Assembly: GCA_015059095.1 (NCBI GenBank)
Contig: SVBA01000009.1
Span: 3,228-67,227 of the forward strand
Length of the DNA: 64,000 nt
Direction: 5' to 3'
From: Erysipelotrichaceae bacterium
GTDB lineage: Bacteria; Bacillota_I; Bacilli_A; RFN20; CAG-449
The notes below the pieces were generated by a model that saw nothing but the letters and a program-made list of their open reading frames with translations, was not told where the DNA came from and ran no database searches. Of the stretch, positions 38,779-64,000 are shown in pieces. The position numbers were made by a program, and so were the translations under genes. Position 1 is the first letter of the stretch, and every line of letters begins with the position of its first letter.

Positions 38779-39894
38779 ATGAAAGTAGTTGTTATAGGCG
38801 CAGGTCCTTGTGGGATTATGGCAAGTATTGAAATTAAAAAGAATAATCCTGAATATCAAGTAATTCTACTTGAAAAAGATTCTAGAAGCATCGGTAGTAG
38901 AATTAAGGTTTCTGGTAATGGAAGATGTAATTTAGGAAATAGTAATATTAATGAAAAGAAGTACAATCATTCATTATTTGTAAGAGACATTATATCTTTA
39001 AAAGAAGATTTGTTTTCTTATTTAAATGAAGGTGGATTAGGATACTTTACTGATGAAGAAGGAAGAATTTATCCGCTTAGTGAATCTTCCATTTCTGTTA
39101 TTCATGTTTTAAATAATTTGTTGAAAAAATATGGTGTGGATGTCAAATTAGATAGTAAGGTTGTCGAAATAAAGAAAAGTGGTAATAAATATCGAGTTTT
39201 ATGCGAAAAAGACGAATATTTTGCTGACAAAATAGTTTTAGCAATTGGTGGAATATCTCAATTAAATGATAAGTCTTTATATAGTAAATTACTAAATGAA
39301 TTAGATGTTAGAATAACCGATTTAAAGCCATCATTAACTCCTATTTTAACTTCAAAATTCGATAAAAGATTAGAAGGAAAAAGATGTAAAGTAAATGTAA
39401 AACTATTTAGAGATGGTGATTTAGTAAAAATTGAAGATGGTGAAATGTTATTTAAAAAAGATGGTGTATCGGGAATTGTGATGTTTAATATGTCATCTTA
39501 TTTATCTAGACAACATATCGATGATTATAGTTCATATTATTTTATAATTGATTTACTTCCTAAATTAACATATCATGAGTATTTAAAATTTAGAAGTATT
39601 GATCCAAGTCTTAAAAATATCATGCAAGAAGATATTGCTAGAGAAGTTGTTTCTAAAGGAATTGATCCAAAAGAATTTTTATTAGAAATAAAAGGACTTT
39701 ATGATTTTAAAAATTCACAAGTTACAAGTGGAGGAGTTGCTTTAGAAGAATTAAATTCTAATTTATCTTTAAAAAAAGATAATAATATCTTTATAGGTGG
39801 GGAAACTATAGATATCGATGGAGAATGCGGAGGATATAATATAGAATTTGCATTCCTATCTGGTATTAAAATAGGTCGTTTCTTCAATGAATAA
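38779..39894 (+). CDS. HI0933/BaiN-like FAD-dependent flavoprotein (aminoacetone-oxidase family)
   Basis: Rossmann VVVIGAGPCG, then GSRIKVSGNGRCN, and a C-terminal GGETIDIDGECGGYN. Confidence 0.7.
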   Translation: MKVVVIGAGPCGIMASIEIKKNNPEYQVILLEKDSRSIGSRIKVSGNGRCNLGNSNINEKKYNHSLFVRDIISLKEDLFSYLNEGGLGYFTDEEGRIYPLSESSISVIHVLNNLLKKYGVDVKLDSKVVEIKKSGNKYRVLCEKDEYFADKIVLAIGGISQLNDKSLYSKLLNELDVRITDLKPSLTPILTSKFDKRLEGKRCKVNVKLFRDGDLVKIEDGEMLFKKDGVSGIVMFNMSSYLSRQHIDDYSSYYFIIDLLPKLTYHEYLKFRSIDPSLKNIMQEDIAREVVSKGIDPKEFLLEIKGLYDFKNSQVTSGGVALEELNSNLSLKKDNNIFIGGETIDIDGECGGYNIEFAFLSGIKIGRFFNE

Positions 39895-45485: not shown

Positions 45486-45562
45486 GGCGATTATGGTGAA
45501 GTGGTTAACACATCTGGCTGTGAACCAGACATTCGTCAGTTCGATTCTGATTAATCGCCCCA
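45486..45562 (+). tRNA. tRNA-His (GTG anticodon) with encoded G-1 and CCA
   Basis: Cloverleaf with acceptor GCGATTA/TAATCGC, G-1 opposite C73, anticodon loop CTGTGAA, T-loop TTCGATT and an encoded CCA end. Confidence 0.85.
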
Positions 45563-45614: not shown

Positions 45615-46739
45615 TTACTTTCCGCTTAATTTATTTTTAAATTCTTTATCTGCACATGATTTACCAAAATACATTAATTCCCATACTGCTGAAGGTTCAG
45701 TAGCTTTTTCTACTACGATTCCATTTTCAATTTTTTCAATAGTAGCATCACCTTCAAATCTTAGATATGATCCTGAGAATCCTATTAATTTTGCTAATAA
45801 TTGTAATGGTTTAGGTAGAAGTTCAATAAATCTTTGCTTTGAGATATCATTTTTTCTATTAAATGATATTCTATAAAATTCATTATCAGGAGTTAAGTAT
45901 TCATAGATTACATGGTTATATACTGGCTTTCCTGTATGCTCATCAAGGTATTCATCAGTTGATACAAATTTTAGGGTATGATTCGAGTTGTCGCCTAAAA
46001 TCCTATCTTTTTTTGCTAACATAAAGACATCAAAATCTTTGTATCCATATTTCTTTTCTCCAGTAATCCAAGCTGATATTACTTTATAGTCACCAATTTT
46101 TGCGCGTCCCCAATACCAATGGTGCATAAGTTTTAGCATGGATATATTTCCCCAGTTATGATCGTGATATCCTGATCCTTCTAAAGTTTTAGTTTCACCA
46201 TTTAAAGTAATTGTAGCAGTGGCTTTTCCTTCTGGTATTGCAGGTAGCCAAGAGAAATAATATTTTTCATCATCTCCAAAAAAGATACTTCCAGTTTGTG
46301 ATCTCCAAGCAGGAATTGTTCCTACTAATTCAGTTTGTGCTTGGATATTTTTACCAACAAATTTTATATTGTATTTTTTTAAATCGCCAATAAGATAAGA
46401 ATCATTTATTTTCACATCACATTGAGATTTTGAAAAATGAGATTCTTCTATTGAGCAAGTTATTAAATCCATATATTTTGTTCCATCTGGTAAAGTTAAT
46501 TCAAGAGTTGCTTGAGGGTTGATAGGTCCATTAACTTCAATTGGTGATTTAGAAAAGAAGATAATAACCATCTTTGTTCCATCATTAAAAGCAAAATCGT
46601 TATACCACCATTCATATGTTCCTTTTGAACCGTCAGTTCTTGAACCATCTTCCCAAATTTCTATTTTATCCTTAGTTAATCCTAGTTTTTTATAATGTAT
46701 TTCATCGTCTGGATGAATTGAGTTTTGAATTTTTTTCAT
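45615..46739 (-). CDS. hypothetical protein, possibly CrtC/AttH-like lipocalin-fold family
   Basis: GYHDHNWG motif, WYWGR and a beta-rich composition. Family assignment is tentative. Confidence 0.3.
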   Translation of the reverse strand: MKKIQNSIHPDDEIHYKKLGLTKDKIEIWEDGSRTDGSKGTYEWWYNDFAFNDGTKMVIIFFSKSPIEVNGPINPQATLELTLPDGTKYMDLITCSIEESHFSKSQCDVKINDSYLIGDLKKYNIKFVGKNIQAQTELVGTIPAWRSQTGSIFFGDDEKYYFSWLPAIPEGKATATITLNGETKTLEGSGYHDHNWGNISMLKLMHHWYWGRAKIGDYKVISAWITGEKKYGYKDFDVFMLAKKDRILGDNSNHTLKFVSTDEYLDEHTGKPVYNHVIYEYLTPDNEFYRISFNRKNDISKQRFIELLPKPLQLLAKLIGFSGSYLRFEGDATIEKIENGIVVEKATEPSAVWELMYFGKSCADKEFKNKLSGK

Positions 46740-46856: not shown

Positions 46857-47465
46857 ATGAGATTTGATATTAATAAATTAAAATGGACTAGATTACCTAA
46901 AGAATATTCTATTAATGAGAATGAAATAGTTGTTGTTACTAATCCTCATACTGATTTATGGCAACGTACTTATTATGGATTTAGAAATGATAATGCACCT
47001 GTTTTACAAATGGAAACTAATGAAAAGTATTTTTCTTTTATTGTCAAAACTTCATTTGAAAGTAAAGTTAGATTTGATCAATGTGGTGTTTGTATTTATT
47101 TAGATAGTGAGAATTGGTTAAAAGGATCAATTGAATATGAAAATGAAAAAATACAAAGATTAGGTAGTGTAGTTACTAATTTAGGGTATTCAGATTGGGC
47201 TACTACGGATATTTCTTCTTGTGTTAAAGAAATGTGGTATCGTTTATCTAGAAGAGAAGATTCTTATTGTATTGAATGTAGTGAAGATGGTATTAGTTTT
47301 AAACAAATGAGGATATGTCATTTAGAAAAAGGAAAAGACGTTATTAAATTTGGTATATATGCTTGTTCTCCTGAAGATTCTTCTTTTAAAGCAACTTTTA
47401 CTAATTTTGAATTAAGAGAATGTGAATGGAAAGCTCATGATGGTCAACAACCTGATGTAGAATAA
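46857..47465 (+). CDS. DUF1349 (concanavalin-like, enolase-regulator-1-like) protein
   Basis: Overall length and beta-sandwich pattern fit DUF1349. Confidence 0.45.
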   Translation: MRFDINKLKWTRLPKEYSINENEIVVVTNPHTDLWQRTYYGFRNDNAPVLQMETNEKYFSFIVKTSFESKVRFDQCGVCIYLDSENWLKGSIEYENEKIQRLGSVVTNLGYSDWATTDISSCVKEMWYRLSRREDSYCIECSEDGISFKQMRICHLEKGKDVIKFGIYACSPEDSSFKATFTNFELRECEWKAHDGQQPDVE

Positions 47466-47532
47466 TAAATTTTTAACAGTAATTTAATATTTTTAGTATA
47501 TTATTGAATAAAATCAACAATGAAAGGATTGT

Positions 47533-48228
47533 ATGAAATATATTAAAAAAAGGAAAAAATGGTTTGAAAATTTAAAGAAAATTCTTAGATTGTTCATCAA
47601 AAAATCAGAATTTATTTATTTGGGTGAAAAAATAGAAGATGGTAGTATTATTATTTCTAATCATGAAGGTGCATCTTCTCCTTTAACTTTGGAATTATAT
47701 AGTGATTTTTATTTTAGATTTTGGGGAACATATGAAATGAACTCAGGATTAAAAAGTGTTTATAAATATTTAAGCGAAATATATTTCCACAAGAAAAAAC
47801 ATTGGAATATTCATTTAAGTAGAATTTTTTGTATTATTGCTGCCCCTATTGTTAATTTGTTTTATAAAGGTTTAGATTTGATATCTACTTATCCTGATGG
47901 AAGATTATTAAATACTATTAAAGAAAGTATAAAAGTATTAGAAAATAATAAAAATTTAGTGATTTATCCTGAAAATTCTAATAAAGGTTACTTTAAAGCA
48001 TTAGAAATGTTCCATCCGGGTATTTCTTTATTCTTAGAACAATGTTTAAAAAAGAATATTAATGCTAAAGTATATGTATCTTATTTAAAAAAAGAAGAAA
48101 GAAAATACATCATTGATAAACCTATTTATATTAAAGAATTATTAGATATGCGTTTATCAAGAGAAGAACTTGCTTCTTATCTTTGTGATAAATGTAATAA
48201 TTTGAGCAATATTGAGATCTCAAAATAG
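47533..48228 (+). CDS. putative acyltransferase-like protein (weak PlsC-like)
   Basis: IIISNHEGASS and a VIYPE region resemble lysophospholipid acyltransferase motifs I and III, but the canonical Asp in HX4D is absent. Confidence 0.3.
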   Translation: MKYIKKRKKWFENLKKILRLFIKKSEFIYLGEKIEDGSIIISNHEGASSPLTLELYSDFYFRFWGTYEMNSGLKSVYKYLSEIYFHKKKHWNIHLSRIFCIIAAPIVNLFYKGLDLISTYPDGRLLNTIKESIKVLENNKNLVIYPENSNKGYFKALEMFHPGISLFLEQCLKKNINAKVYVSYLKKEERKYIIDKPIYIKELLDMRLSREELASYLCDKCNNLSNIEISK

Positions 48229-48283
48229 AGATCTTTTTATTTTTCTTTAAAAAATGGGTAACCTATTTTAAAGGAGAAATTAT

Positions 48284-48718
48284 ATGATTGAAGAAGATAC
48301 AATTAAGTTATTAAGAGAATGTGATCAAGGAATTAAGATGGGTATTAGCTCTATTGATCAAGTTATTTCTTATGTAAGTTCAGAAAAAATGAAAAACGTT
48401 TTTTTAAAATCAAAAATGGAACATTCGAAAATTGAAAATGAAATAGAAGAGATGTTGTCTAGATTTCAAGATGAAGGTAAAAATCCTAATATATTTGTTC
48501 AGGGAATGTCAAAAATGAAGACAAATATTGAATTAATGATCAATGATTCAGATTATAAAATTGCTAGTATTATGGTGGATGGAACAAATATGGGAGTTAA
48601 ATCATTAAGTAGATATTTAAATCAATACAAGGCTGCAAGTGAAGAAGCAAAATACATAACTCGTAAAATAATTAAATTAGAAGAAAAATTATCAAAAGAT
48701 TTAAGAGAATTTTTATAA
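48284..48718 (+). CDS. hypothetical helical protein (DUF2383-like?)
   Basis: Alpha-helical and Lys/Glu-rich, with no catalytic motif. AGGAG RBS. Confidence 0.3.
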   Translation: MIEEDTIKLLRECDQGIKMGISSIDQVISYVSSEKMKNVFLKSKMEHSKIENEIEEMLSRFQDEGKNPNIFVQGMSKMKTNIELMINDSDYKIASIMVDGTNMGVKSLSRYLNQYKAASEEAKYITRKIIKLEEKLSKDLREFL

Positions 48719-48824
48719 TTTGAGTCGAATAAATCGAAAATCTAACATTTTTCATAATATAAGTTGTATAATTAAAGTATAAAAATAGATTGGCACATAA
48801 TAGCTAAACTGGAAGGAACAAAAT

Positions 48825-49361
48825 ATGAAAAATGTTGTGATTATTTCTTCATCACCAAGAAAAGATGGAAACACAGAAACTTTATGTAAGGAGTTTTATC
48901 GTGGAAGTGAATCGATGGGACATCATGTTGAATTAATATGTCTTAGAGATTATAATTTAAAATATTGTTTGGGATGTTATAGTTGTACTAAATTGGGTAG
49001 ATGTATACATAAAGATGGAATGGATGAAATTTCTGAAAAACTATTAAAAGCAGATGTAATAGTTTTATCAACTCCAGTATATTTTTATTCAATGTCTGGT
49101 CAATTAAAGGTATTTATTGATCGATTAGTCCCTTATTATAGTAAAATTAAGGCCGATATTTATCTAATTGGAACGATGTTTGACATTGAACAAGAAATGA
49201 TGGATTCAACTTTTGAAGCAATAAGAGGAGCGACTAGAGATTGCTTTGTTAATTGTAAAGAAAAAGGTGTCATCTATGGTTTAGGTTTATATAATAAAGA
49301 TGATGTTTTAAAAAGAGAAGACTTAAAAGCCAAAGCTTATGCGATGGGAATGAGTGTTTAA
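48825..49361 (+). CDS. iron-sulfur flavoprotein / NADPH-dependent FMN reductase-like
   Basis: Flavodoxin-like VVIISSSPRKDGNT plus a CLGCYSCTKLGRC Cys cluster. GGAAGG RBS. Confidence 0.6.
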   Translation: MKNVVIISSSPRKDGNTETLCKEFYRGSESMGHHVELICLRDYNLKYCLGCYSCTKLGRCIHKDGMDEISEKLLKADVIVLSTPVYFYSMSGQLKVFIDRLVPYYSKIKADIYLIGTMFDIEQEMMDSTFEAIRGATRDCFVNCKEKGVIYGLGLYNKDDVLKREDLKAKAYAMGMSV

Positions 49362-49367
49362 TTTAAT

Positions 49368-49395
49368 GGAGAATGAATTATTTCATTCTCTTTTT
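49368..49395 (+). terminator. rho-independent terminator
   Basis: GGAGAATGAA-TTATTT-CATTCTC followed by T5. Confidence 0.7.
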
Positions 49396-49426
49396 AAGTG
49401 TGCTAAAATTAGTTTATATTTAGGTA

Positions 49427-49885
49427 ATGATTATGAAAATAGTTAGATATGAAGAAAAACATATTCAAGATGTCGTTTCTTATGAATTAACTTTAAGAAA
49501 TGAAGAACCTGATTGGGGATGGGAAATTAATGAAGAATACATTAATAAAGTATCTTCATCTTTTTGTGATTCTAAATATAATAATGCTTTATCTTTTATT
49601 GCTTACATTGATAATAAAGTGGTAGGAAGAATTGATGCAAGTTTAATTCCTACTCATTTCGATGGAAGTATGAAAGCTTATTTAGATTGGATATGTGTAT
49701 TAAAGAGTTATCGTCATAAAGGTGTTGCTCAAGCATTAATGAAAGAATTAAGAAAAGTACTAAAAGAAGAGTATAATGTGGATACTTTAGTAGGATTAAT
49801 CGCCTCAAATGAAGAAGCACAAAGATTTTATAGATCTTTAGATAAATCTATAATTAGAGATGAAGGGATTTGGATTGATTGCTAA
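49427..49885 (+). CDS. GNAT-family N-acetyltransferase
   Basis: Acetyl-CoA motif A, RHKGVAQALMKEL. Confidence 0.75.
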   Translation: MIMKIVRYEEKHIQDVVSYELTLRNEEPDWGWEINEEYINKVSSSFCDSKYNNALSFIAYIDNKVVGRIDASLIPTHFDGSMKAYLDWICVLKSYRHKGVAQALMKELRKVLKEEYNVDTLVGLIASNEEAQRFYRSLDKSIIRDEGIWIDC

Positions 49886-50366
49886 TATGAATAAAGTTTA
49901 TTTAAAAGAACATTTAAAAAAATATCCACTAATGGATATTCAAGATATTATTAAACTCCATTTACAGGCTATATTAGGTCCTGCTCATCTTTTGCCTAGT
50001 AAAGAAAGAATTAAAGAAAATTTTATTAAAGAGTATAATGAAATTAAAGATTTAGATTATCATTATGATTTACTAGAAGATGTTAGTGAAACTTATACTA
50101 GAGTCTATTTAAAACCTTATTATGAATTAATGGGAAGTTTTGATAAATTAGTAGATGTGTTTTATTATTCAATTGATAAAGATTTAGATATTGAAGGATA
50201 TAAAAAGGTGATTAAAGGACTAATTAATGAGGAAAATAAGGAGTTTATTAGTAGATATTTAGAAAGTGACAGTGTGTTAATTAGTCATTCTAAAAAATAT
50301 AAAGATAATTATCATCCTCACTACATTGTAGTAAAGTCAATGTATATAGGATTAGCACTTAAATAG
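49860..50366 (+). CDS. hypothetical protein
   Basis: No recognisable motif. The true start may be the ATG at 49887 (MNKVYL), just after the GNAT stop. Confidence 0.35.
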   Translation: MKGFGLIANMNKVYLKEHLKKYPLMDIQDIIKLHLQAILGPAHLLPSKERIKENFIKEYNEIKDLDYHYDLLEDVSETYTRVYLKPYYELMGSFDKLVDVFYYSIDKDLDIEGYKKVIKGLINEENKEFISRYLESDSVLISHSKKYKDNYHPHYIVVKSMYIGLALK

Positions 50367-50377
50367 GAGGAAAATTT

Positions 50378-51244
50378 ATGAGTAAATCTAAGGTGTATTT
50401 TAGTAGTAAAATTACTAAAGAATCAGTATTAAATTTGTATAGAACTTTAGGAGTTGAATTAAAAGGAAATGTTGCGGTTAAAGTGCATTCGGGTGAGCCA
50501 GGAAATCAAAACTTTATTAGACCTGATTTTTGGAGTGATATGATTAATGAAGTTAATGGTACGGTAGTTGAATGTAATACAGCTTATGCAGGTAGAAGAA
50601 ATACAACTAAAGCCCATTTAGAGACTTTTAAAGAACATGGATGGAATGCTTTTAGTGTAGATTTATTGGATGCAGAAGGTCCAGATTTAGTTTTAGATAT
50701 TCCAAAAGGAAAAGTAATTAAAAAGAATTATGTTGGTAAAGATATTGTTAATTATGATTCAATGTTAGTGTTATCTCATTTTAAAGGTCATCCAATGGGT
50801 GGATATGGTGGAGCGATTAAACAACTTTCAATTGGATTAGCTTCATCTTATGGTAAAGCGTATATTCATGGAGCAGGTGATCCTAGTAAAATTTGGACTG
50901 CAGATCATGATAAGTTTTTAGAATCAATGGCAGATGCAGCGTTAAGTGTAGTTGAATATTTTAAAGGTAATATTGTCTATATTAATGTTATGAAAAATAT
51001 GTCAGTAGATTGTGATTGCTGCGCAGTTGCAGAAGATCCATGTATTAAAGATATTGGGATTTTGATTTCAACTGATCCAATTGCAATCGATCAAGCTTGT
51101 ATTGATTTAGTATATTCTTGTGATGATGAAAAGAAAAATCATTTAATTGAAAGAATTGAATCAAGAAATGGAATTCATACGATTGTTGCAAGTGCAGAAT
51201 TAGAGTTTGGTTCAAGAGATTATGAACTAATTAAAATAGATTAA
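50378..51244 (+). CDS. DUF362 domain protein (putative Fe-S binding)
   Basis: DCDCCAVAEDPC Cys cluster and overall DUF362 pattern. GGAGG RBS. Confidence 0.6.
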   Translation: MSKSKVYFSSKITKESVLNLYRTLGVELKGNVAVKVHSGEPGNQNFIRPDFWSDMINEVNGTVVECNTAYAGRRNTTKAHLETFKEHGWNAFSVDLLDAEGPDLVLDIPKGKVIKKNYVGKDIVNYDSMLVLSHFKGHPMGGYGGAIKQLSIGLASSYGKAYIHGAGDPSKIWTADHDKFLESMADAALSVVEYFKGNIVYINVMKNMSVDCDCCAVAEDPCIKDIGILISTDPIAIDQACIDLVYSCDDEKKNHLIERIESRNGIHTIVASAELEFGSRDYELIKID

Positions 51245-51256
51245 TAGAGGTCAAAA

Positions 51257-52069
51257 ATGGAATTTTGGGATGTATATGATGAATTAGGAAATAAATTAAA
51301 TAAGATTCATTCTCGAGGCGAAAAACTTTTAGATGGTGAATATCATTTAGTGTGTGAATGTTTAGTAAAACATGTTGATGGAACTTTCTTATTAATGAAA
51401 AGGCATCCTTCAAAGAAAGTTTATCCATTATGTTATGAGGCGACTGCAGGAGGTTCTGCTTTAGCTAATGAAACACCTTTAGATTGTGTAAAAAGAGAAT
51501 TAAAAGAAGAGACTGGAATTGATTGTGATAATTTTATCCAAGTTAATTATTCTATTTCTAAAGAAAGACATGCTATATATTATTCCTATGTTTGTGTAGT
51601 TGATTGTTTGAAAGATAGTGTTATTCTTCAAGAAGGGGAAACTATCGATTATAAATGGGTGGATGTAGACGAATTTAAAGATTATATCTCTTCTACTGAA
51701 TCAGTGAAAACCCAAGTGGAAAGATATAAAAAATATTATGATACTTTTGAAATAGGATATAATTTTATGGTTATTATTGACCGTCCTCTTGGTAGTATTC
51801 ATCCTAAGCATAAAAATATTGTTTATCCTGTAAACTATGGATATATTCCAAATAGAATTGGTGGAGATAATGAAGAGCAAGATGCATATGTTTTAGCTTT
51901 AGAAGATATACCATTAAAATCTTATATTGGTAGATTAATTGGTGTAATAATTAGAATTGATGATAATGAAACTAAATGGATTATTTCTAATAGGGATTTT
52001 AGTGAAAAAGAGATATTAGAAAAGGTTTCTTTCCAAGAAAAATACTTTAAAAGTGTATTATTTAAATAG
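51257..52069 (+). CDS. NUDIX hydrolase fused to a C-terminal inorganic-pyrophosphatase-like domain
   Basis: NUDIX box GGSALANETPLDCVKRELKEETGI in the N-terminal half. C-terminal half: YPVNYGYIPNRIGGDNEEQDAYVL...IGVIIRIDDNETKWII parallels family I PPase YPANYGYI...DGDPVDVLV...VGVLKMTDE. Confidence 0.65.
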   Translation: MEFWDVYDELGNKLNKIHSRGEKLLDGEYHLVCECLVKHVDGTFLLMKRHPSKKVYPLCYEATAGGSALANETPLDCVKRELKEETGIDCDNFIQVNYSISKERHAIYYSYVCVVDCLKDSVILQEGETIDYKWVDVDEFKDYISSTESVKTQVERYKKYYDTFEIGYNFMVIIDRPLGSIHPKHKNIVYPVNYGYIPNRIGGDNEEQDAYVLALEDIPLKSYIGRLIGVIIRIDDNETKWIISNRDFSEKEILEKVSFQEKYFKSVLFK

Positions 52070-52080
52070 GAGAAAAAAAT

Positions 52081-52608
52081 ATGAAAAAATTATTAATTAT
52101 TGTAGATTATCAATATGATTTTGTTAACGGAAGTTTAGGCTTTGAAGGAGCAGAAAAATTAATTCCAGTGATCAAAGAAAAAATTGAAAATTATTTAAAA
52201 GAAAATCAAGATATAATTTATACTTTAGATACCCATGAAGAAGATTATTTGTCTTCAACTATGGAAGGTAAATTATTACCTGTAGCACATTGTTTAAGAT
52301 GTAGTAAGGGGTGGAAAGTAGTAGATGAAGTTGATTATTTAGATAGAGCGATTAAGGTATTTGAAAAACCTACATTTCCATCTTTAGAATTAGCAAATTA
52401 TTTAAAAGATAAAGAGTATGATGAGGTTGAATTATGTGGGCTTGTTTCTAATATTTGCGTATTGAGTAATGCAGTAATGGTAAAATCTAGTTTACCTAAT
52501 GCTAGTATTATTGTAGATGCTAAAGCGACGGATTCTTTCAATAAAGATCTTCATGAAAAGTGTTTAGACATTTTAGAAGGTCTCCATATTCAAGTGATTA
52601 ATAGATAA
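52081..52608 (+). CDS. isochorismatase-family cysteine hydrolase, nicotinamidase (PncA)-like
   Basis: LLIIVDYQYDFVNGSL (Asp), K, and the nucleophile CGLVSNICV. Confidence 0.65.
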   Translation: MKKLLIIVDYQYDFVNGSLGFEGAEKLIPVIKEKIENYLKENQDIIYTLDTHEEDYLSSTMEGKLLPVAHCLRCSKGWKVVDEVDYLDRAIKVFEKPTFPSLELANYLKDKEYDEVELCGLVSNICVLSNAVMVKSSLPNASIIVDAKATDSFNKDLHEKCLDILEGLHIQVINR

Positions 52609-58534: not shown

Positions 58535-58611
58535 GGTCTATTGGAGAAGCGGCTTAACTCGACGCCCTCTCAAGGCGTTATTCACGGGTTCGAACCCCGT
58601 ATAGATCACCA
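58535..58611 (+). tRNA. tRNA with CUC anticodon (tRNA-Glu-like), CCA encoded; marks the left edge of the island
   Basis: Hand-folded cloverleaf: acceptor GGTCTAT/ATAGATC, D-loop containing GG, anticodon stem ACGCC/GGCGT with loop CTCTCAA, T-arm ACGGG-TTCGAAC-CCCGT, discriminator A, then CCA. Confidence 0.55.
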
Positions 58612-58620
58612 GAATAGTAG

Positions 58621-58690
58621 AACAGGTTTGATACAATGCTATCAAGCCTTTTTTTGTGCTTTTATAAGGGTTCAAATCTCACCCGTAAGG
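58621..58690 (+). repeat. repeat module copy 1: TTGATAC-type terminator hairpin + T-run + tRNA T-arm-like segment
   Basis: GGTTTGATAcaatgcTATCAAGCC, then T7, then GCTTTTATAAGGGTTCAAATCTCACCCGTA. The last part resembles the 3' half (T-arm) of the adjacent tRNA (GGGTTCGAACCCCGTA). Confidence 0.5.
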
Positions 58691-58754
58691 AATTACTTAA
58701 ATGATTATTAATGATTTAAGTGTATAAATTGTTATTTTTAGTGTGTCTATTCGA

Positions 58755-58870
58755 TAAACGATTTAATAGAGTGGTTTCAAAAATTTAAGGACGGTTTCAT
58801 TATTAAACGATTATGTTAAGGTGGTTTCAAAAATAGTTCAAAGGTAGTTTCACACTATTAAACGATTATA
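58755..58870 (+). repeat. iteron array L: about 4 tandem 31-bp units of GGTGGTTTCA-N-TATTAAACGATTAT
   Basis: AAACGATT occurs 3 times and G(G/T)(T/A)GTTTCA occurs 4 times at about 31-bp spacing. Confidence 0.6.
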
Positions 58871-58929
58871 CAAATTCATAGTAAATACAAAGAAAATATG
58901 ATATAATAAATCAAAGGAAGTGGCTATAT

Positions 58930-59730
58930 ATGTTTGAGAGTTTGAAAATAATAAGTGAGTGTAAAAGAACACTTAAAAATCATAATATTAAATATAATGA
59001 AGACTTTAAAATATATAAGAAATTTGGATTAATTCATTGTCAAGTTGACGATTGGAGAGGTCCTGTTGAAGTTGATGGTTTTCCAGTTTTGACAATTAAA
59101 TCAGCCACTTTATTACTTATTGAATCTTGTGCATTTGATCATTATTTGTTGGAGGAAAAAAATAAAAGAGAACAGCTAATTAAAGAATATCCTTTAGGAT
59201 ATGGAGAATATGAAACGAGAAAATATCTTTTTGAAAATATACTAAAAGTCATAAAAGGTTATGATGAAAAACACTATGTTAGTTTAATTAATAAATATAC
59301 AAAGTATTTAAATATGAATAGGAAAACAAAGCAAAGATGGTCATACAATAAATCAACAGAAAAGTTTGAAATTTATCCTATTGCTTCATATTCAGCGGTG
59401 ATTATATCTAAAGCAATAAATACTATTAGAATTTATAATCAAGATCCTTGTGGTGGAAGATTAGATGATAATATTTATAAATTAATATCTGAAAATTTTG
59501 AAGATGGATTATTTAAATTTTCTTTTACTAATAACGGAGAAGACAGATTTTATTTAGAAATTTATAATCCGCAATATGCAGATGGTTCAGACAATTACAT
59601 TATGATTTATAAGGCTGATAAAGTAGTATGGTCGTATATGCCATTTGAAAATAGCGAGTCAAAACAAGAAAGAATATTTATTTTTGATGGAACAAAATTA
59701 AATATTGTTGGTGAAATTAATTTTAAATAA
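58930..59730 (+). CDS. hypothetical protein (266 aa), island gene
   Basis: Soluble protein with no motif I can recognise. AAGGAAG RBS. It is the first gene after iteron array L. Confidence 0.4.
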   Translation: MFESLKIISECKRTLKNHNIKYNEDFKIYKKFGLIHCQVDDWRGPVEVDGFPVLTIKSATLLLIESCAFDHYLLEEKNKREQLIKEYPLGYGEYETRKYLFENILKVIKGYDEKHYVSLINKYTKYLNMNRKTKQRWSYNKSTEKFEIYPIASYSAVIISKAINTIRIYNQDPCGGRLDDNIYKLISENFEDGLFKFSFTNNGEDRFYLEIYNPQYADGSDNYIMIYKADKVVWSYMPFENSESKQERIFIFDGTKLNIVGEINFK

Positions 59731-59770
59731 AGGATTAAAAAAATATCAACGAAAGGATAAAATTATAATT

Positions 59771-60256
59771 ATGATCAATAAGAAAGGTATAATTGGTGAA
59801 TTTATGGAAGAAAATGTAACATTGATTGGCTATAATTCTAAAAAACAGCCTTATATATTTTTAGGTGCAGCTATCTTGGTATTTATTATTGCTATACTGT
59901 GTATATTTTTTGCTGAAGGAAATAAAAAATTTGCATCAATTGCATTGTTTCTTATAGGGATAGGACTCATGATTGGCTTTTTTTATTTGTTAAAATTACC
60001 TCATATAGGTATTAAAGTAATAGATGACAAATACTTATACTTTTATGATAAAGATAATGTGAAAATTATTGATATTAGTAATATTGAAAAAGTAAATTAT
60101 TGGCCAGCAAATTATGGCCTTAAGATTGTTCTTTTCACTTCAAAAGGTAGTGAATATTTTACTTATTTATTATCTAATATCAAAGATGTAAAAAAACATT
60201 TATTATATTTATTTGAAAAAGAAAATATTAAGGTAATAAATAGGTATAGTAAGTAG
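59771..60256 (+). CDS. small membrane protein (2 TM + cytoplasmic domain), island gene
   Basis: The track ORF 59705..60256 begins with TTG. The first ATG (MINKKG) is at 59771. The protein has two TM helices and a roughly 100-aa C-terminal domain. Confidence 0.4.
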   Translation: MINKKGIIGEFMEENVTLIGYNSKKQPYIFLGAAILVFIIAILCIFFAEGNKKFASIALFLIGIGLMIGFFYLLKLPHIGIKVIDDKYLYFYDKDNVKIIDISNIEKVNYWPANYGLKIVLFTSKGSEYFTYLLSNIKDVKKHLLYLFEKENIKVINRYSK

Positions 60257-60411
60257 TATTGAATTATTCTCGATATTAAGTATTGGTGAAAAAATTGCAC
60301 TTGAAGTATTATAGAAAAGAAATGATGGTCTTAGTAAAAATGGCAAAATATTTTCTTTAAAGATGAAAGTATGTATTATAAAAAATTAAGTCCTATGAAA
60401 TAGGATTAAAA

Positions 60412-60585
60412 ATGAAATTAATAAGAGAAGCTAATGATGTAAGTAAAACAGAATTAGCCATTAGATTAAAAGTCAATCGAAAGACAGTTATATTATTAGA
60501 AAAAGGTGATAGGTTACCTTCATTAGAATATATCTATAACTTTTGTAAAATGTTTGATGTTTTGATTGAATTAATGTTAAATTAA
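60412..60585 (+). CDS. small XRE-family HTH regulator (57 aa)
   Basis: Hand translation gives MKLIREANDVSKTELAIRLKVNRKTVILLEKGDRLPSLEYIYNFCKMFDVLIELMLN, a Cro/C1-type HTH. Missing from the track because it is under 60 aa. A perfect palindrome TCCTATgaaATAGGA lies at 60391-60405, overlapping its RBS. Confidence 0.55.
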   Translation: MKLIREANDVSKTELAIRLKVNRKTVILLEKGDRLPSLEYIYNFCKMFDVLIELMLN

Positions 60586-60600
60586 AGGGGGTTATTTTCA

Positions 60601-61494
60601 ATGAAGTTAAATATTGTTGTTTTTATTTTATTTGTAATAATTTATGTTTTGACTATAGTTTTAACAATATTTAAAATCAAAGATATACACAAGAATCCTG
60701 AAAAATATGAGCATGAAGATTTAATTAATGAAACAAATAGAAAATATGCTAACAAATGGGATAAATTTTCTAGTTTTTTTAAATCATTATCTCATCAATA
60801 TGGAATGATAAATATGTTATTATGTTTTGTCTTTGTTGCTTTAGGAACAATATTTATCTTTTCCATAAATAAAGCGTATAGTCAAGGTGAAGGATATATT
60901 ACCTTAGGAACGCAACTAATTGGTTCAATTGGCCTATTATTTTTAGGGATTCCATTATGTATGATAATTATTCCATTGGCAATCAAAAAACCATTCTTTG
61001 TTGTTACAACGTTAGATATGTTTAATACAGACCATAGACCAAAAATATATTTTAAAGGATATATATTATTTTTAGTATTTTTTATAATAACATTTCCATT
61101 TATAACTCTGTCTTGTAACAATTACGTTTATTATGATTCAAATGGCATTTATTCAAATAGATATTTTCAGATTGAAGAAAAGTTTACTTCATATGAAGAA
61201 ATAACAAAGATTGAAATTTATTTAACCTATAAAGAAGAAAAAATATCTGGAGTACATTATGATGTGTATTTAAATGACGGAAGATTTAATATTAATTCAC
61301 CTAGCGGTAAAAAGAAGATATTTGCTGATAATACCTTTACAATACATAATTATGTTATAAATAAAAGTAATTGTGAATTTATTATTACTCCATTAACTGA
61401 AGATGATATTAATTTTTTAGTGGAAAACTATACTAACGATGATTATCAAAAAATTTTAGAAGTCTTTAATGCTGATCAATTAAAGGAGAATTAA
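60601..61494 (+). CDS. polytopic membrane protein (297 aa), island gene
   Basis: AAGGGGG RBS 8 nt upstream and at least five hydrophobic helices. Immediately downstream of the small XRE gene. Confidence 0.4.
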   Translation: MKLNIVVFILFVIIYVLTIVLTIFKIKDIHKNPEKYEHEDLINETNRKYANKWDKFSSFFKSLSHQYGMINMLLCFVFVALGTIFIFSINKAYSQGEGYITLGTQLIGSIGLLFLGIPLCMIIIPLAIKKPFFVVTTLDMFNTDHRPKIYFKGYILFLVFFIITFPFITLSCNNYVYYDSNGIYSNRYFQIEEKFTSYEEITKIEIYLTYKEEKISGVHYDVYLNDGRFNINSPSGKKKIFADNTFTIHNYVINKSNCEFIITPLTEDDINFLVENYTNDDYQKILEVFNADQLKEN

Positions 61495-61495
61495 A

Positions 61496-61984
61496 ATGAA
61501 AATAGGAATTATTAAGGAAAAGAAAGTTGGGTTACTAATATCTACTATTATTTGTCTTATATGTTGTATTTTTCCATTTTTTACTAAATTAGAGTTTATT
61601 GACAAAATATTTATATTCGTTATGCTGTTAATAGCATATTTAATTATATTATTATGTTTTCTAATATCGATGGAATGGTACATAATAGACATAGAATCTA
61701 TTACAGTTAAAAATGTTTTTGGAACAGTAAATAAAGTTTATTATAAAGATGTTAAATATTCTTATGTTAAACGATTACCTGTTTTTACTAGAGATAAAGG
61801 AATCTCTTGCTTATTATTTAATGATGGTAGAAAAGAATGCAGTTTCTTCACAGGTAATAATATAGATAATCATAAAAAATATATTATTAGAATTCCATAT
61901 ACTCAAGAAGTTGTGGATTATTTCAAAAAAAATAATATTGAGTTAAATAATAATTCGATTTTTAAAACTATAATAAATGAATAA
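61496..61984 (+). CDS. small membrane protein (2 TM + cytoplasmic domain), island gene
   Basis: AAGGAG RBS. Same architecture as 59771..60256, with a weak shared motif after TM2 (IIDIESITV versus IIDISNIEKV). Confidence 0.4.
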   Translation: MKIGIIKEKKVGLLISTIICLICCIFPFFTKLEFIDKIFIFVMLLIAYLIILLCFLISMEWYIIDIESITVKNVFGTVNKVYYKDVKYSYVKRLPVFTRDKGISCLLFNDGRKECSFFTGNNIDNHKKYIIRIPYTQEVVDYFKKNNIELNNNSIFKTIINE

Positions 61985-61985
61985 A

Positions 61986-62140
61986 ACAAACGATTTGCTA
62001 GGTGGTTTCATTATTAAACGATTTAGGCAGGTAGTTTCAAATTATTAAACGATTACAACTGATTTTCAGTAATTATTAAACGATATGGTCAGGTGGTTTC
62101 AAATTATTAAACGATTATGGCAACTATTAAACGATTTATT
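61986..62140 (+). repeat. iteron array R: about 4.5 tandem 31-bp units GGTGGTTTCA(A/T)ATTATTAAACGATT
   Basis: TATTAAACGAT appears 5 times at spacings of about 31, 31, 31 and 17 bp. Same unit and same orientation as array L. Confidence 0.65.
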
Positions 62141-62257
62141 AAAATTGTATTAATAGTGTCATACCTTGCCATTTAAGAAGATTAGATTTGATACAATATA
62201 TCAAGCCTTTTTTATTTGCTTTTATAGAGGTTCAAGTTCCACCCGTCTTGTTAAAAG
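62141..62257 (+). repeat. repeat module copy 2 (extended): AAAATTGT...TTGCCATTTAA + TTGATAC hairpin + T-run + GGTTCAAGTTCCACCCGT
   Basis: Aligns with copy 1 (hairpin, T-run, T-arm-like part) and over a longer stretch with copy 3. Confidence 0.5.
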
Positions 62258-62423
62258 ATGATATTGTTTCATTTTTATAACTGAAGTTTAGTGACTGATT
62301 TAATTAAGGAACTGCAGAGATTTTATAACTTTATAACGATTTGATAACAATTTAACGATTACCTAACTTTTTAAGACATCCTCCTAGATTGCACTAAGTT
62401 ATGGTGTTGCACCGCATTCAAGT

Positions 62424-62600
62424 ACCTATGGGCGGTAATAGATAGCTGTACGCAGATTATGGCAATTGATCAGGTGAGACTCCTACCCAACGAAAGTGGA
62501 GTCTTTTTATTATCTCGCATTGATGGATATTTTAATTATTTTTTAATATAATTTATATAGTGAAAATCGACTGATAAATTAGAATTTGACGGTCAAATCC
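62424..62600 (+). repeat. about 180-bp cassette A: conserved 60-nt segment + terminator hairpin + extended -10 promoter
   Basis: ACCTATGGGCGGTAATAGATAGCTGTACGCAGATTATGGCA..., then GAGACTCC...GGAGTC followed by T5, then TTGATG...TAATATAAT. About 88% identical to cassette B at 63475. Confidence 0.55.
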
Positions 62601-62691
62601 ACTCTACCACTGGTTAATTTCCTCACTAAACCAATGGTAGGTGTATTTTATAGAAAATAATTATTACACTAGATACGAAAGGAGATAACTT

Positions 62692-63294
62692 ATGAATCAA
62701 ATTAAAATAGGAAGATTTATTGCTGAATGTAGAAAAAAAGAAAACTTAACCCAAATGCAGTTAGCTGAAAAGTTAAACATCACAGACAAAGCAGTATCTA
62801 AGTGGGAAAGAGGTATAGCAATGCCTGATGCTTCTTTAATGCTTGATCTATGTAGTATTCTTGGTATTAGTGTAAATGAATTATTAAGTGGGGAGAAAAT
62901 TGATGTGGAAAATAATAATAACGAAAAGCTTTTGCTTGATATGGCAAAAGAATTAGAAAACAAAAACAAAACTATTTGGTCATCTATGTGGGCACTTATG
63001 ACTGTAAGTTTGATTACTTTAATTGCAGGTATTTTTATTGCTGCATTTTTGATACCAGAAGGTATCTGGCAACTTGTAACAATTCTTGGTGTTTGTGTTG
63101 TGTTTTTAATACCTTGCATCTACGCTGTAAAATTAGAAGTTAGTGTGGGAGCATATAAATGTAAAAACTGTGGTTATGAAATTGTTCCTACATATAAAGA
63201 AGCAATGATGTCGATGCATAGAGGAACAACTCGTCATTTATTGTGCCCTAAATGCAACAAACGTACTTGGTGTAAAAAAGTAATAAGGAAATAA
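62692..63294 (+). CDS. XRE-family HTH regulator fused to 2 TM helices and a C-terminal zinc-ribbon
   Basis: N-terminal HTH_3 (RFIAECRKKENLTQMQLAEKLNITDKAVSKWERG), two hydrophobic helices, then CKNCGYEIVP...CPKCNKRTWC. AAGGAG RBS. Confidence 0.55.
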   Translation: MNQIKIGRFIAECRKKENLTQMQLAEKLNITDKAVSKWERGIAMPDASLMLDLCSILGISVNELLSGEKIDVENNNNEKLLLDMAKELENKNKTIWSSMWALMTVSLITLIAGIFIAAFLIPEGIWQLVTILGVCVVFLIPCIYAVKLEVSVGAYKCKNCGYEIVPTYKEAMMSMHRGTTRHLLCPKCNKRTWCKKVIRK

Positions 63295-63359
63295 GATTTC
63301 AAATTGAGAGAGCGTCAAATTCCTATTTATCGTTTAGAAATAGGGGTATGCAATTGTAT

Positions 63360-63455
63360 TAAAATTGTGTAACGTTGCCATTTAAAATTACCAATCTTGA
63401 TACAATAAAAAGTATCAAGATTTTTTATTTTTATGGTGTTCAAGTTCAACTCCTT
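63360..63455 (+). repeat. repeat module copy 3: AAAATTGTGTAACGTTGCCATTTAA + perfect 11-bp TTGATAC hairpin + T-run + GGTGTTCAAGTTCAACTCC
   Basis: AATCTTGATACaataaaaaGTATCAAGATT followed by T6. Aligns with copies 1 and 2. Confidence 0.5.
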
Positions 63456-63474
63456 GATATACACAGCATTTAAA

Positions 63475-63640
63475 TACCTATGGACGGTAATAGATAGCTG
63501 TACGCAGATTATGGCAGTTAATCAAGTGAGGCTCCTACTCAATGAAAGTGGAGTCTTTTTATTATCTCGCATTGGTGGACATTTTAGTTGTTTTTTGATA
63601 TAATTTATATGGTGAAAATTGACTGATAAATTAGAATTTG
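63475..63640 (+). repeat. about 170-bp cassette B (near-identical to cassette A)
   Basis: ACCTATGGACGGTAATAGATAGCTGTACGCAGATTATGGCA..., then GAGGCTCC...GGAGTC followed by T5, then TTGGTG...TGATATAAT (extended -10). It ends 10 nt before the next ATG. Confidence 0.55.
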
Positions 63641-63650
63641 TAGGTGTGTT

Positions 63651-64000
63651 TATGAATAAAGAGTGGTCAGAATTAAATAAAGAAGTTAAGATTTTATTGA
63701 ATAAAAAAACAACCTTTAAAGATGGAATTAATAAACTCATTGCATTAAGAAGTTTACTTTTTAATGAATGGAAAAAAGCTATGAGTGATTTATCTATTGA
63801 AGATTATTCGAATCAACCATTTTTTAATAGAGATGGATACGAATCTAAAACGATCGCATATTCTATTTTTCACGTGTTTAGAATTGAAGATATTGTATTA
63901 AATACATTGATAAATAATAGACAACAAATTTTTATTCGAGATGATTATCAATATAAGATGAATTCATCTATTATTACAACGGGAAATGAATTAAAAGGCG
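63651..64000 (+). CDS. DinB_2/DUF664-like protein (3'-truncated at window edge)
   Basis: Frame is open from ATG 63651 to the window end. The segment IAYSIFHVFRIEDIVLNTLI resembles the DinB_2 helical bundle. Confidence 0.4.

Follow-up and report, generated by a model that had tools for sequence, protein, structure and literature searches.

A duplicated terminator-promoter stretch behind tRNA-Glu as the probable common head of miniature mobile gene cassettes

The question raised by this locus is why one block of sequence, carrying a terminator and a promoter, stands ahead of two different neighbouring genes. The locus lies in a 64,000-nt stretch of contig SVBA01000009.1 (assembly GCA_015059095.1) from an Erysipelotrichaceae bacterium. 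This whole stretch is referred to as the window, and positions are those of the window unless a locus number precedes them. Repeat search and pairwise alignment defined the block as an ungapped direct repeat of 184 nt, with copy A at 62410-62593 and copy B at 63462-63645, which are 90% identical. A preliminary description had placed a duplicated cassette at 62424-62600 and 63475-63640 with about 88% identity, close to these limits. Our analysis indicates that the duplicated stretch is probably the common terminator-promoter head of neighbouring miniature mobile gene cassettes located at a tRNA gene, that is, a portable expression unit. The repeat would be present twice because two elements, here named X2 and X3, are sister members of one family of miniature integrative cassettes that were inserted successively behind a tRNA-Glu gene.

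The 31-mer GGTAATAGATAGCTGTACGCAGATTATGGCA from the conserved segment of the repeat occurs exactly twice in the 64-kb window, compared with 0.00 copies expected from shuffled sequences, and the 20-mer box sequence GACTGATAAATTAGAATTTG also occurs exactly twice, with 0.09 expected. The repetition extends further upstream than previously described: each copy is preceded by a terminator hairpin and a tRNA-like relic (62143-62246 and 63352-63450), and a third copy of this upstream piece, the T head, is located at 58616-58686, directly after tRNA-Glu(CTC). Alignment of 11 sequences, comprising the two window copies and nine from other loci, demonstrates that the repeat consists of two separable modules, M1 and M2. 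Downstream of M1, three different promoter regions were found, and upstream of it two different sequences; an M2-like head or its box is found without M1 in the sister elements X4 (L004 13114-13260), L040, and L039. L004 is the window's own contig, retrieved by exact-protein look-up, 100% identical and reaching 9.3 kb past the window.

M1 comprises a conserved core of approximately 45 nt and, judged by sequence criteria, certainly contains an intrinsic (Rho-independent) terminator. The hairpin is formed by GAGACTCC..GGAGTCTT in copy A and by GAGGCTCC..GGAGTCTT with one G-U pair in copy B, each followed by T5, with free energies of -11 and -12 kcal/mol in the window copies. Across all copies the stem measures 8-10 bp at -8 to -12 kcal/mol and is followed by T5-T8; pairing is retained in 96% of cells across 10 distinct sequences, including one compensatory change from C-G to A-U. 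The hairpin was not listed by a simple terminator scanner because its loop exceeds 8 nt. M2 has the hexamers, the 16-18-nt spacer and the optional TG of a predicted sigma-70 promoter, and contains the shared 16-nt box GATAAATTAGAATTTG. In a 5.6-kb scan, the promoter of copy B (TGGACA-17-TATAAT with the TG extension, 11/12 matches) ranked 1st of 55 promoter-like sites, and that of copy A (TGGATA-17-TATAAT, 10/12, no TG) ranked 10th. The hairpin with T5 in both copies, including the G-U pair in B, and the promoter upstream of both genes had already been proposed and were recovered here. Likewise, copy A was correctly placed ahead of a gene for a helix-turn-helix (HTH), transmembrane and zinc-ribbon protein, since the open reading frame (ORF) at 62692-63294 was confirmed (Pfam HTH_3, E=1.5e-13). 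Copy B does lie upstream of an ORF of 216 aa beginning at 63653; this protein has no Pfam match at E<=0.01, so its former label "DinB_2-like" is unverified.

Related loci were retrieved from genome and metagenome collections by exact matches to 20-22-mers or to proteins. The M1+M2 unit is present at 86-92% identity in eight or more additional, distinct loci from metagenomes or genomes, behind different tRNAs and ahead of unrelated genes (GNAT acetyltransferases, an AAA_33 kinase, a 230-aa protein), and the unit is always inside small elements attached to tRNA 3' ends. In L006, X2 and the start of X3 are present at 99.8% identity directly after the CCA of tRNA-Leu(CAA), beside argS and a glycosyltransferase gene. 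The same head follows tRNA-Cys ahead of a GNAT gene in L001, and tRNA-Leu in L002, a metagenome-assembled genome labelled Clostridia. The left arm of the elements is also found after tRNA-Leu (L013, L015, L040), tRNA-His (L036), and tRNA-Gly (L016, L039). L013 and L040 represent complete single-gene elements of approximately 1 kb, situated between the CCA of tRNA-Leu and the apparent native tRNA terminator. A local segmental duplication or gene conversion without any mobility would account for two copies only 1052 nt apart and 90% identical, but not for these further loci with their different tRNAs and genes. Their flanks have no nucleotide similarity to the window; a purely local duplication is therefore excluded, and this explanation as a whole is regarded as extremely improbable. 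Further copies, for which a search had been proposed, thus exist, and of the earlier suggestions it is the portable insulator and promoter unit carried by inserted elements that agrees with them. No match to 62143-62690 was obtained by blastn against phage and plasmid collections, and exact-pattern scans of viral contigs for M1, the right end, the T head and the box found nothing.

From the window into its continuation on L004, the elements form a tandem array of four or five members, which starts immediately behind the CCA of an intact tRNA-Glu gene and runs in the order X1, X2, X3, X4, X5 (Table 1). The terminal CCA (58609-58611) anchors the array and is presumed to be the left half of the attB site. 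X1 belongs to a subfamily without the box, and none of its five ORFs encodes a recombinase. The cargo of X3 consists of the 216-aa protein, an AAA_33 kinase, a GNAT protein and a glyoxalase-family gene, in that order. Beyond X3, L004 continues with X4, which encodes a 142-aa protein, and then with a fifth head. No recombinase domain was detected in X1-X5 with Pfam, and tblastn with two serine and two tyrosine recombinases gave no match in the window or L004. The G+C content here is 27%.

The limits of these elements coincide with a fixed geometry. Homology between L006 and the window begins at 62169, the CCA. Among 25 tabulated junctions, 16 of which have an element right end as their left side, and with at most one mismatch allowed per motif, TGATACAA starts at +18 in 17, including tRNA junctions whose T heads are otherwise strongly diverged, and for TTGTATTA the start is at -27 in 12 of the 16. 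The distance between either motif and the CA that ends the CCA of the tRNA is thus 17 nt, and junctions internal to the arrays reconstitute a 52-bp dyad, TTGTATTA-N17-CA-N17-TGATACAA. The best dyad centre fell on CA in three of four junctions tested; dyad scores of single junctions are not above those of shuffles, and the support comes from the coincidence with independent homology breakpoints and from the fixed offsets. The identity shared by the tRNA side and the element side is CCA only. For a large serine integrase, the expected attP site is a dyad of approximately 50 bp that has a dinucleotide at its centre and minimal identity to its partner site. In its dyad, central dinucleotide and short identity, the junction therefore resembles an attachment site of a large serine recombinase at the sequence level. 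An insertion sequence (IS) or other DDE transposon, or a miniature inverted-repeat transposable element, was considered and rejected: the tips (TTTAAGAAG... and ...GTTGCCA) do not form inverted repeats, and neither the elements nor the box-bounded cargo are flanked by a target duplication.

A plan for these elements can be proposed from the above. Each would begin with a T head, whose terminator replaces that of the tRNA, optionally followed by M1 with a second intrinsic terminator. M2 would come next, with its sigma-70 promoter, conserved leader and AG-centred box, behind which between one and four cargo genes would stand. A CC-centred box and palindrome, G-rich iterons, and the right end ...TTGTATTA-N17-CA would close the element. 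Together, M1 and M2 would constitute an insulated expression head: the T and M1 terminators would keep transcription of the tRNA or of the element ahead from running through, and M2 would start it afresh, so that cargo behind the box may be expressed independently of the insertion site. Insertion would be site-specific at the CA of the terminal CCA, and a circular form would carry the 52-bp dyad. Since none is encoded in X1-X5, a large serine recombinase would most likely be supplied in trans. In this plan we infer the acting enzyme, the crossover at CA, the activity of the terminators and promoters, and the continued mobility of the window copies.

Table 1. Coordinates of the array members and their modules in the window (other loci as indicated); functional assignments are predictions.
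Feature	Position	Strand	Description
tRNA-Glu(CTC)	58535-58611	+	Rfam tRNA, 56.1 bits; ARAGORN
Element X1	58612-62171	+	T1 head 58612-58686; five ORFs; right end ...TTGTATTAATAGTGTCATACCTTGCCA
Junction X1/X2	62145-62196	+	exact TTGTATTA-N17-CA-N17-TGATACAA, 52-bp attP-like dyad; breakpoint after 62171
Element X2	62172-63380	+	1.2-kb cassette with single cargo; bounded by junction motifs
T2 head of X2	62172-62246	+	terminator hairpin about 62187-62205, T-run, tRNA 3'-like relic GAGGTTCAAGTTCCACCCGT
Two left-arm iterons of X2	62334-62360	+	TAACGATT(AC)
M1 copy A	62428-62512	+	core GCGGTAATAGATAGCTGTACGCAGATTATGGCA.., terminator hairpin 62476-62505, T-run
M2 copy A	62513-62588	+	-35 TGGATA 62524-62529, -10 TATAAT 62547-62552, conserved leader, AG-centred box GATAAATTAGAATTTG 62573-62588
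Copy A-specific leader	62589-62691	+	47-nt insertion; decayed ribosome-binding site (RBS)/start region of copy B type (GTAGGTGTATTTTATAG); then own RBS of the HTH gene
X2 cargo gene	62692-63294	+	200 aa: XRE-type HTH, transmembrane segments, C-terminal zinc-ribbon-like part
X2 closing module	63314-63344	+	box GTCAAATT-CC-TATTTAT (63314-63331) overlapping palindrome CCTATTT-N9-AAATAGG (63322-63344)
G-rich iteron GGTATGCAA	63345-63353	+	directly before the X2/X3 junction
Junction X2/X3	63354-63405	+	exact TTGTATTA-N17-CA-N17-TGATACAA; breakpoint after 63380
Element X3	63381 past the window end to window-equivalent 65804 (L004 13113)	+	T3, M1, M2, four-gene cargo
T3 head of X3	63381-63450	+	hairpin 63393-63422
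M1 copy B	63480-63564	+	repeat search, alignment
M2 copy B	63565-63640	+	-35 TGGACA 63576-63581, extended -10 TGATATAAT ending 63604, box 63625-63640
216-aa cargo gene	starts 63653; L004 10961-11611	+	no Pfam match

The arrangement of the box bears directly on how cargo is organised. In the form GATAAATT-AG-AATTTG it is located after the M2 promoter and also before the RBS of every later cargo gene (L004 11607, 12134, and 12598; L003 4226, 4783, a variant, and 5357). The three L004 copies and those at L003 4783 and 5357 stand between genes without promoters, inside the cargo operon. Furthermore, each cargo block of the box type ends with a copy of variant centre, G(T/A)(C/T)AAATT-CC-(T/A)ATTTAT, fused to the palindrome CCTATTT-N9-AAATAGG; outside X2, this closing module is found at L004 12988 and 13695, L003 6030, L013 965, and L040 about 6650. 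Elements without the AG box (X1, L015) are also without the CC box. It can be observed that gene order between genomes changes exactly at the box. The gene for the 216-aa protein is preceded by M2 in the window and by a gene for a 178-aa protein in L003, and it is followed by an AG box and the kinase gene in the window genome and by a CC box in L003. The kinase gene, located behind the 216-aa gene in L004, directly follows M2 in L013, where it is closed by a CC box. Given the internal and closing copies and the breaks in gene order, the box is thus best described as a cargo boundary. Exchange at the box may be site-specific, as its dyad with a 2-nt centre suggests, or may proceed through recombination across short homology. 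An isolated near-perfect box, GATAAATTAGAATTTA, on the minus strand at 39752-39767 lies inside an ORF of housekeeping appearance and is probably a chance occurrence.

The box was formerly considered a candidate operator, at which proteins such as the XRE-type HTH proteins of X1 and X2 would repress M2. It is indeed an imperfect palindrome, AAATT-AG-AATTT, with 8 of 11 positions matching between its arms ACTGATAAATT and ACCTACAAATT. Counted from the predicted transcription start, it occupies about +14 to +29, a classic place for a roadblock, and HTH genes are near it. However, the same box recurs between cargo genes without promoters, a centre variant closes each cargo block, gene order switches exactly at it, and the box-carrying elements L013 and L040 in other genomes contain no HTH gene. 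The operator was therefore not sustained as the principal reading and is judged unlikely in that capacity; from its sequence context the box is better read as a boundary between cargo genes. An operator role for the promoter-proximal copy is possible, but would leave the internal and closing copies unexplained. A more ambitious proposal, for which the odds are somewhat better though still clearly unfavourable, has two tiers: in addition to insertion at the tRNA CCA, the box (ACTGATAAATT-AG-AATTTGTAGGT) would itself be a crossover site at which genes are captured in the manner of an integron through a serine recombinase. The AG box at the promoter and the CC box at the end would then be heterospecific sites bracketing every cargo block, and single genes would be captured, stacked and swapped directionally behind a fixed promoter, which would amount to a gene-capture platform in low-GC Gram-positive or Mycoplasmatota-like gut bacteria. 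Regarding M1, it was suggested that the repeat contains the 3' end of a small RNA. M1 would accordingly be a small-RNA gene, or the 3' part of one, present in two copies, with the 45 nt as a seed or binding region and the hairpin with its U-run as the terminator. Homology breaks off sharply on either side of M1, a discrete module of approximately 80 nt that is retained across three promoter contexts and two upstream ones, and the M1 hairpin has the compensatory change and the high pairing given above. In L011 and L014, moreover, an extended -10 box TGATATAAT lies approximately 30 nt upstream of the M1 core and would yield an RNA of approximately 110 nt ending at the hairpin, which leaves the suggestion some footing. 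Against it, neither window copy has a recognisable promoter upstream of M1, and copy B begins 12 nt after T3. For M1, Rfam gave no match at the gathering score over the whole window or at E<=10 over 62100-63700 and L011 7600-8400; these searches brought up only tRNAs and noise. Structure beyond the terminator is not significant in the window copies (z = -1.3 and -2.5), which includes the 5' part. The invariance of the core among retrieved loci is an artefact forced by exact-match retrieval, and, at 90% identity, a run of 32 identical nt shared by copies A and B is nothing unusual. M1 is missing from many sister elements, and nhmmer detected no diverged M1 copies among the retrieved loci. The small-RNA reading is consequently assigned a low probability. 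A different origin may be considered: in L010 and L012 M1 lies approximately 130 nt downstream of a serine-recombinase relic, and in X2 it lies between the TAACGATT iterons and the cargo promoter, where a recombinase gene would have been. From these positions, therefore, M1 may descend from a recombinase gene since lost, of which it would have been the 3' flank and terminator, and may have been kept as an insulator. Three further candidates were discarded. Read as a coding remnant, M1 has one open frame, but copies A and B differ by both synonymous and non-synonymous changes and have no start in common. The relic family of L010/L012 might have used M1 as an att site, but this is not general, as relics of the same family directly precede a promoter without M1 in L016, L018, L036, and L038. 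Dyad symmetry inside M1 is not above shuffles.

The enzyme that would move these cassettes is the other point on which explanations compete. A 449-aa protein with Resolvase, Recombinase and Zn_ribbon_recom domains is encoded in L018 and L032; its gene stops approximately 80 nt short of TTGTATTA-N17-CA, with four G-rich iterons between the gene and the junction. Up to ...AACCCA these loci have 96% identity; beyond it they diverge sharply, and recombinase-less elements follow in tandem there too. Their junction is diverged but alignable, with iterons that differ from those of the window type. In addition, C-terminal relics and frameshifted genes of serine recombinases are found in left arms or alongside elements (L010/L012, L016, L036). 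Alternatively, a tyrosine recombinase or another enzyme may move the elements, with the iterons as arm-type sites and the relic GGTTCAAGTCCCACC as the remnant of a classical crossover inside the tRNA. The 3' ends of tRNA genes are classical targets of tyrosine integrases (PMC5704250), and iterons in both arms fit arm sites of such enzymes. Most T heads carry a relic of the tRNA 3' half, including the T-arm (GGTTCAAGTCCCACC-like), 60-70 nt after the CCA, as at 58664-58686 and 62229-62246, L002 about 486-510, and L016 7210-7236; in L002 a 16-nt stretch of it is identical to the T-arm of the adjacent tRNA-Leu. This relic may belong to an older layer of integration, or may be functional. On the other hand, no tyrosine recombinase adjoins any of the approximately 25 junctions examined, the CCA identity between tRNA and element is too short for the 6-8-bp overlap of a tyrosine recombinase, the dyad has a dinucleotide at its centre and its arms at +/-18-25, and within the arrays serine-recombinase genes or relics are the only recombinases found. 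A tyrosine recombinase or other enzyme is hence doubtful, and a large serine recombinase acting in trans is preferred. Several points weigh against that preference and the cassette model. Among the loci examined, no recombinase was found linked to the exact end of the window type, so that the link to serine recombinases comes from the diverged family of L018 and L032; the junction has no match after more distant homologues of the 449-aa recombinase (L029, L030, L042). Strict large serine integrases recombine attP with attB only, so that tandem arrays with attP-like internal junctions need either attP x attL events or a relaxed enzyme of the Ccr type. G-rich and TAACGATT iterons stand in both arms, as is more usual for the arm sites of tyrosine integrases. 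Furthermore, TGATACAA at +18 lies in the terminator hairpin, so that some of the constancy of its position could reflect the biology of tRNA 3' ends, and retrieval by exact matches biases the sample towards close relatives.

Some observations on the recombinase family were made in passing. At L030 11400-11680, a 44-nt repeat stands in six tandem copies behind one of the more distant homologues of the 449-aa recombinase, so that members of this family may generally be followed by iteron arrays. ORFs of approximately 155-165 aa, a few reaching 230 aa, on many metagenomic contigs represent the coiled-coil C-terminus of large serine recombinases. One such ORF is fused in frame to bioF in L012 (198-1841), with a related region in L016 (8004-10468). 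The homologues retrieved for the recombinase relic (P0001-P0022) are all fragments, 22 of 22.

Comparison with known systems places the array near, and not within, several described classes. Cis-mobilizable elements (CIMEs) are reviewed as remnants of integrative and conjugative or integrative and mobilizable elements that form accretion arrays at tRNA genes in Firmicutes (PMC5704250). The array shares with them, as far as its sequence goes, an intact tRNA 3' end, recurring ends of att type and the lack of recombination genes of its own: CIMEs are integrase-less, have attL/attR-type ends, and stand in tandem at the 3' end of a target gene, near or derived from recombinase-encoding elements, and here the 449-aa serine recombinase occurs at the alignable junction of L018/L032, where the iterons differ from those of the window family. 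In contrast to CIMEs, the present elements are far smaller (0.7-3.6 kb, one operon each), have a standardised terminator-promoter head, place their left arm behind the CCA of at least five tRNA species, contain no conjugation or mobilisation genes that could be seen, and are associated with recombinases of the serine instead of the tyrosine type. The ssrA islands of Dehalococcoides, with the CcrB-like DsiB, target the tRNA-like 3' end of tmRNA, leave a 20-bp direct repeat and insert in the T-loop (PMC3146451). Like these islands and the staphylococcal cassette chromosome (SCC) and pseudo-SCC elements (CcrAB/CcrC, rlmH 3' end), the present system involves large serine recombinases, an undisrupted 3' end of an essential gene, and tandem islands including members without a recombinase, the 449-aa recombinase being compared with Ccr by class. 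Unlike the Dehalococcoides islands, only CCA is shared here, with the breakpoint at the terminal CA; and unlike both, the targets are ordinary tRNA genes of several specificities, element size is lower by an order of magnitude, and a promoter head is present.

Resemblance to integrons is found in a promoter with an array of small accessory genes (GNAT, glyoxalase, kinase) and a short recurrent site at which they are reshuffled. Here, however, the recurrent site is a dyad of 16-24 bp with a 2-nt centre, and each element is mobile with its own promoter. No IntI or other tyrosine recombinase is present in the window or L004, and at the cargo junctions read in L003 and L004 there is no GTTRRRY/RYYYAAC pair of attC architecture, GATAAATT-AG-AATTTG being present instead. 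The definition of an integron fails because there is neither IntI nor attC, and that of a DDE element fails because there are no inverted repeats at the tips and no target duplication. IS200/IS605-type and Tn7-type elements and group II introns were dropped, as no matching genes, tips or RNA structures were present. The tycheposons of Prochlorococcus, which Hackl and colleagues are said to have described in 2023, reportedly use mainly tyrosine recombinases and duplicate part of the tRNA. They, too, comprise elements with cargo along with satellites that lack an integrase, all piled up at tRNA genes and bounded by partial tRNA repeats, whereas the duplication here is of CCA only and the linked recombinases are of the serine type. 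No description of the present arrangement was found in a literature search, which is weak evidence of novelty.

Further details concern individual members of the array and their surroundings. In X1, iterons of 31 nt carrying TTAAACGATT are found at both ends (about 58750-58880 and 62004-62140); the repeats have a period of approximately 31 nt, ATTATTAAACGATT..N..GGTTTCAA, just inside both ends and in the same orientation. The left-arm TAACGATT iterons are found in X2 only because M1 follows T3 after 12 nt in X3; iterons of the TAACGATT(AC) type also occur in the left arms of the diverged families L015, L018, L036, and L040, and as ACACGATTAC in L032. The 47-nt insertion in the copy A leader, ACGGTCAAATCC...CCAATG (62589-62660), stands directly after the box, and the decayed GTAGGTGTATTTTATAG in this leader suggests by its sequence that the HTH gene displaced an earlier first cargo gene. 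A protein identical to the X2 cargo is encoded on 7 contigs in several contexts. In L007 (608-1785), the identical HTH gene stands second, behind a gene for a 169-aa kinase-like protein, at a junction without M1, M2 or the box, and homology to the HTH cassette starts at window position 62654. The family of the 216-aa cargo protein is large (6285 proteins at E<=1e-20), and no Pfam domain was found in its homologues among the matches listed; some sources name family members "phage head-tail adapter protein", a label that looks doubtful. Metagenomic contigs with the identical upstream MFS gene were also found (L025, L026, L027, and L028, the latter three as contig ends), several of which stop within or just after tRNA-Glu/T1, which fits an assembly break at a repeated or strain-variable array. 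No empty tRNA-Glu site was recovered among the other contigs with this MFS gene, which break at or just after the tRNA. Elsewhere in the window, tRNA-His (45487-45562) is followed by a terminator hairpin with GATAC at about +17, and beyond it small accessory genes (DUF1349, FMN reductase, GNAT, DUF362, NUDIX, isochorismatase) occupy 46857-52608; the region could represent a similar array that is older and has decayed. The neighbouring 374-aa minus-strand ORF at 45615-46739 was considered as an integrase and rejected, as it is not a recombinase.

For annotation, these results imply that repeated terminator and promoter blocks behind tRNA genes can mark the boundaries of elements, not regulatory RNAs. 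If the proposed model is true, the cassettes would be among the smallest self-contained integrative cassettes described, requiring approximately 1 kb for a terminator, a promoter, one gene and a 52-bp attachment site. The model would also predict a compact pair, the 449-aa serine recombinase and the 52-bp site, of possible use in genome engineering. Furthermore, the universal CCA end of tRNA genes would serve as a landing pad, which would explain how accessory genes for acetyltransferases, kinases, glyoxalase-type and Fic proteins, and regulators come to pile up behind tRNAs in low-GC, rarely cultured gut bacteria.

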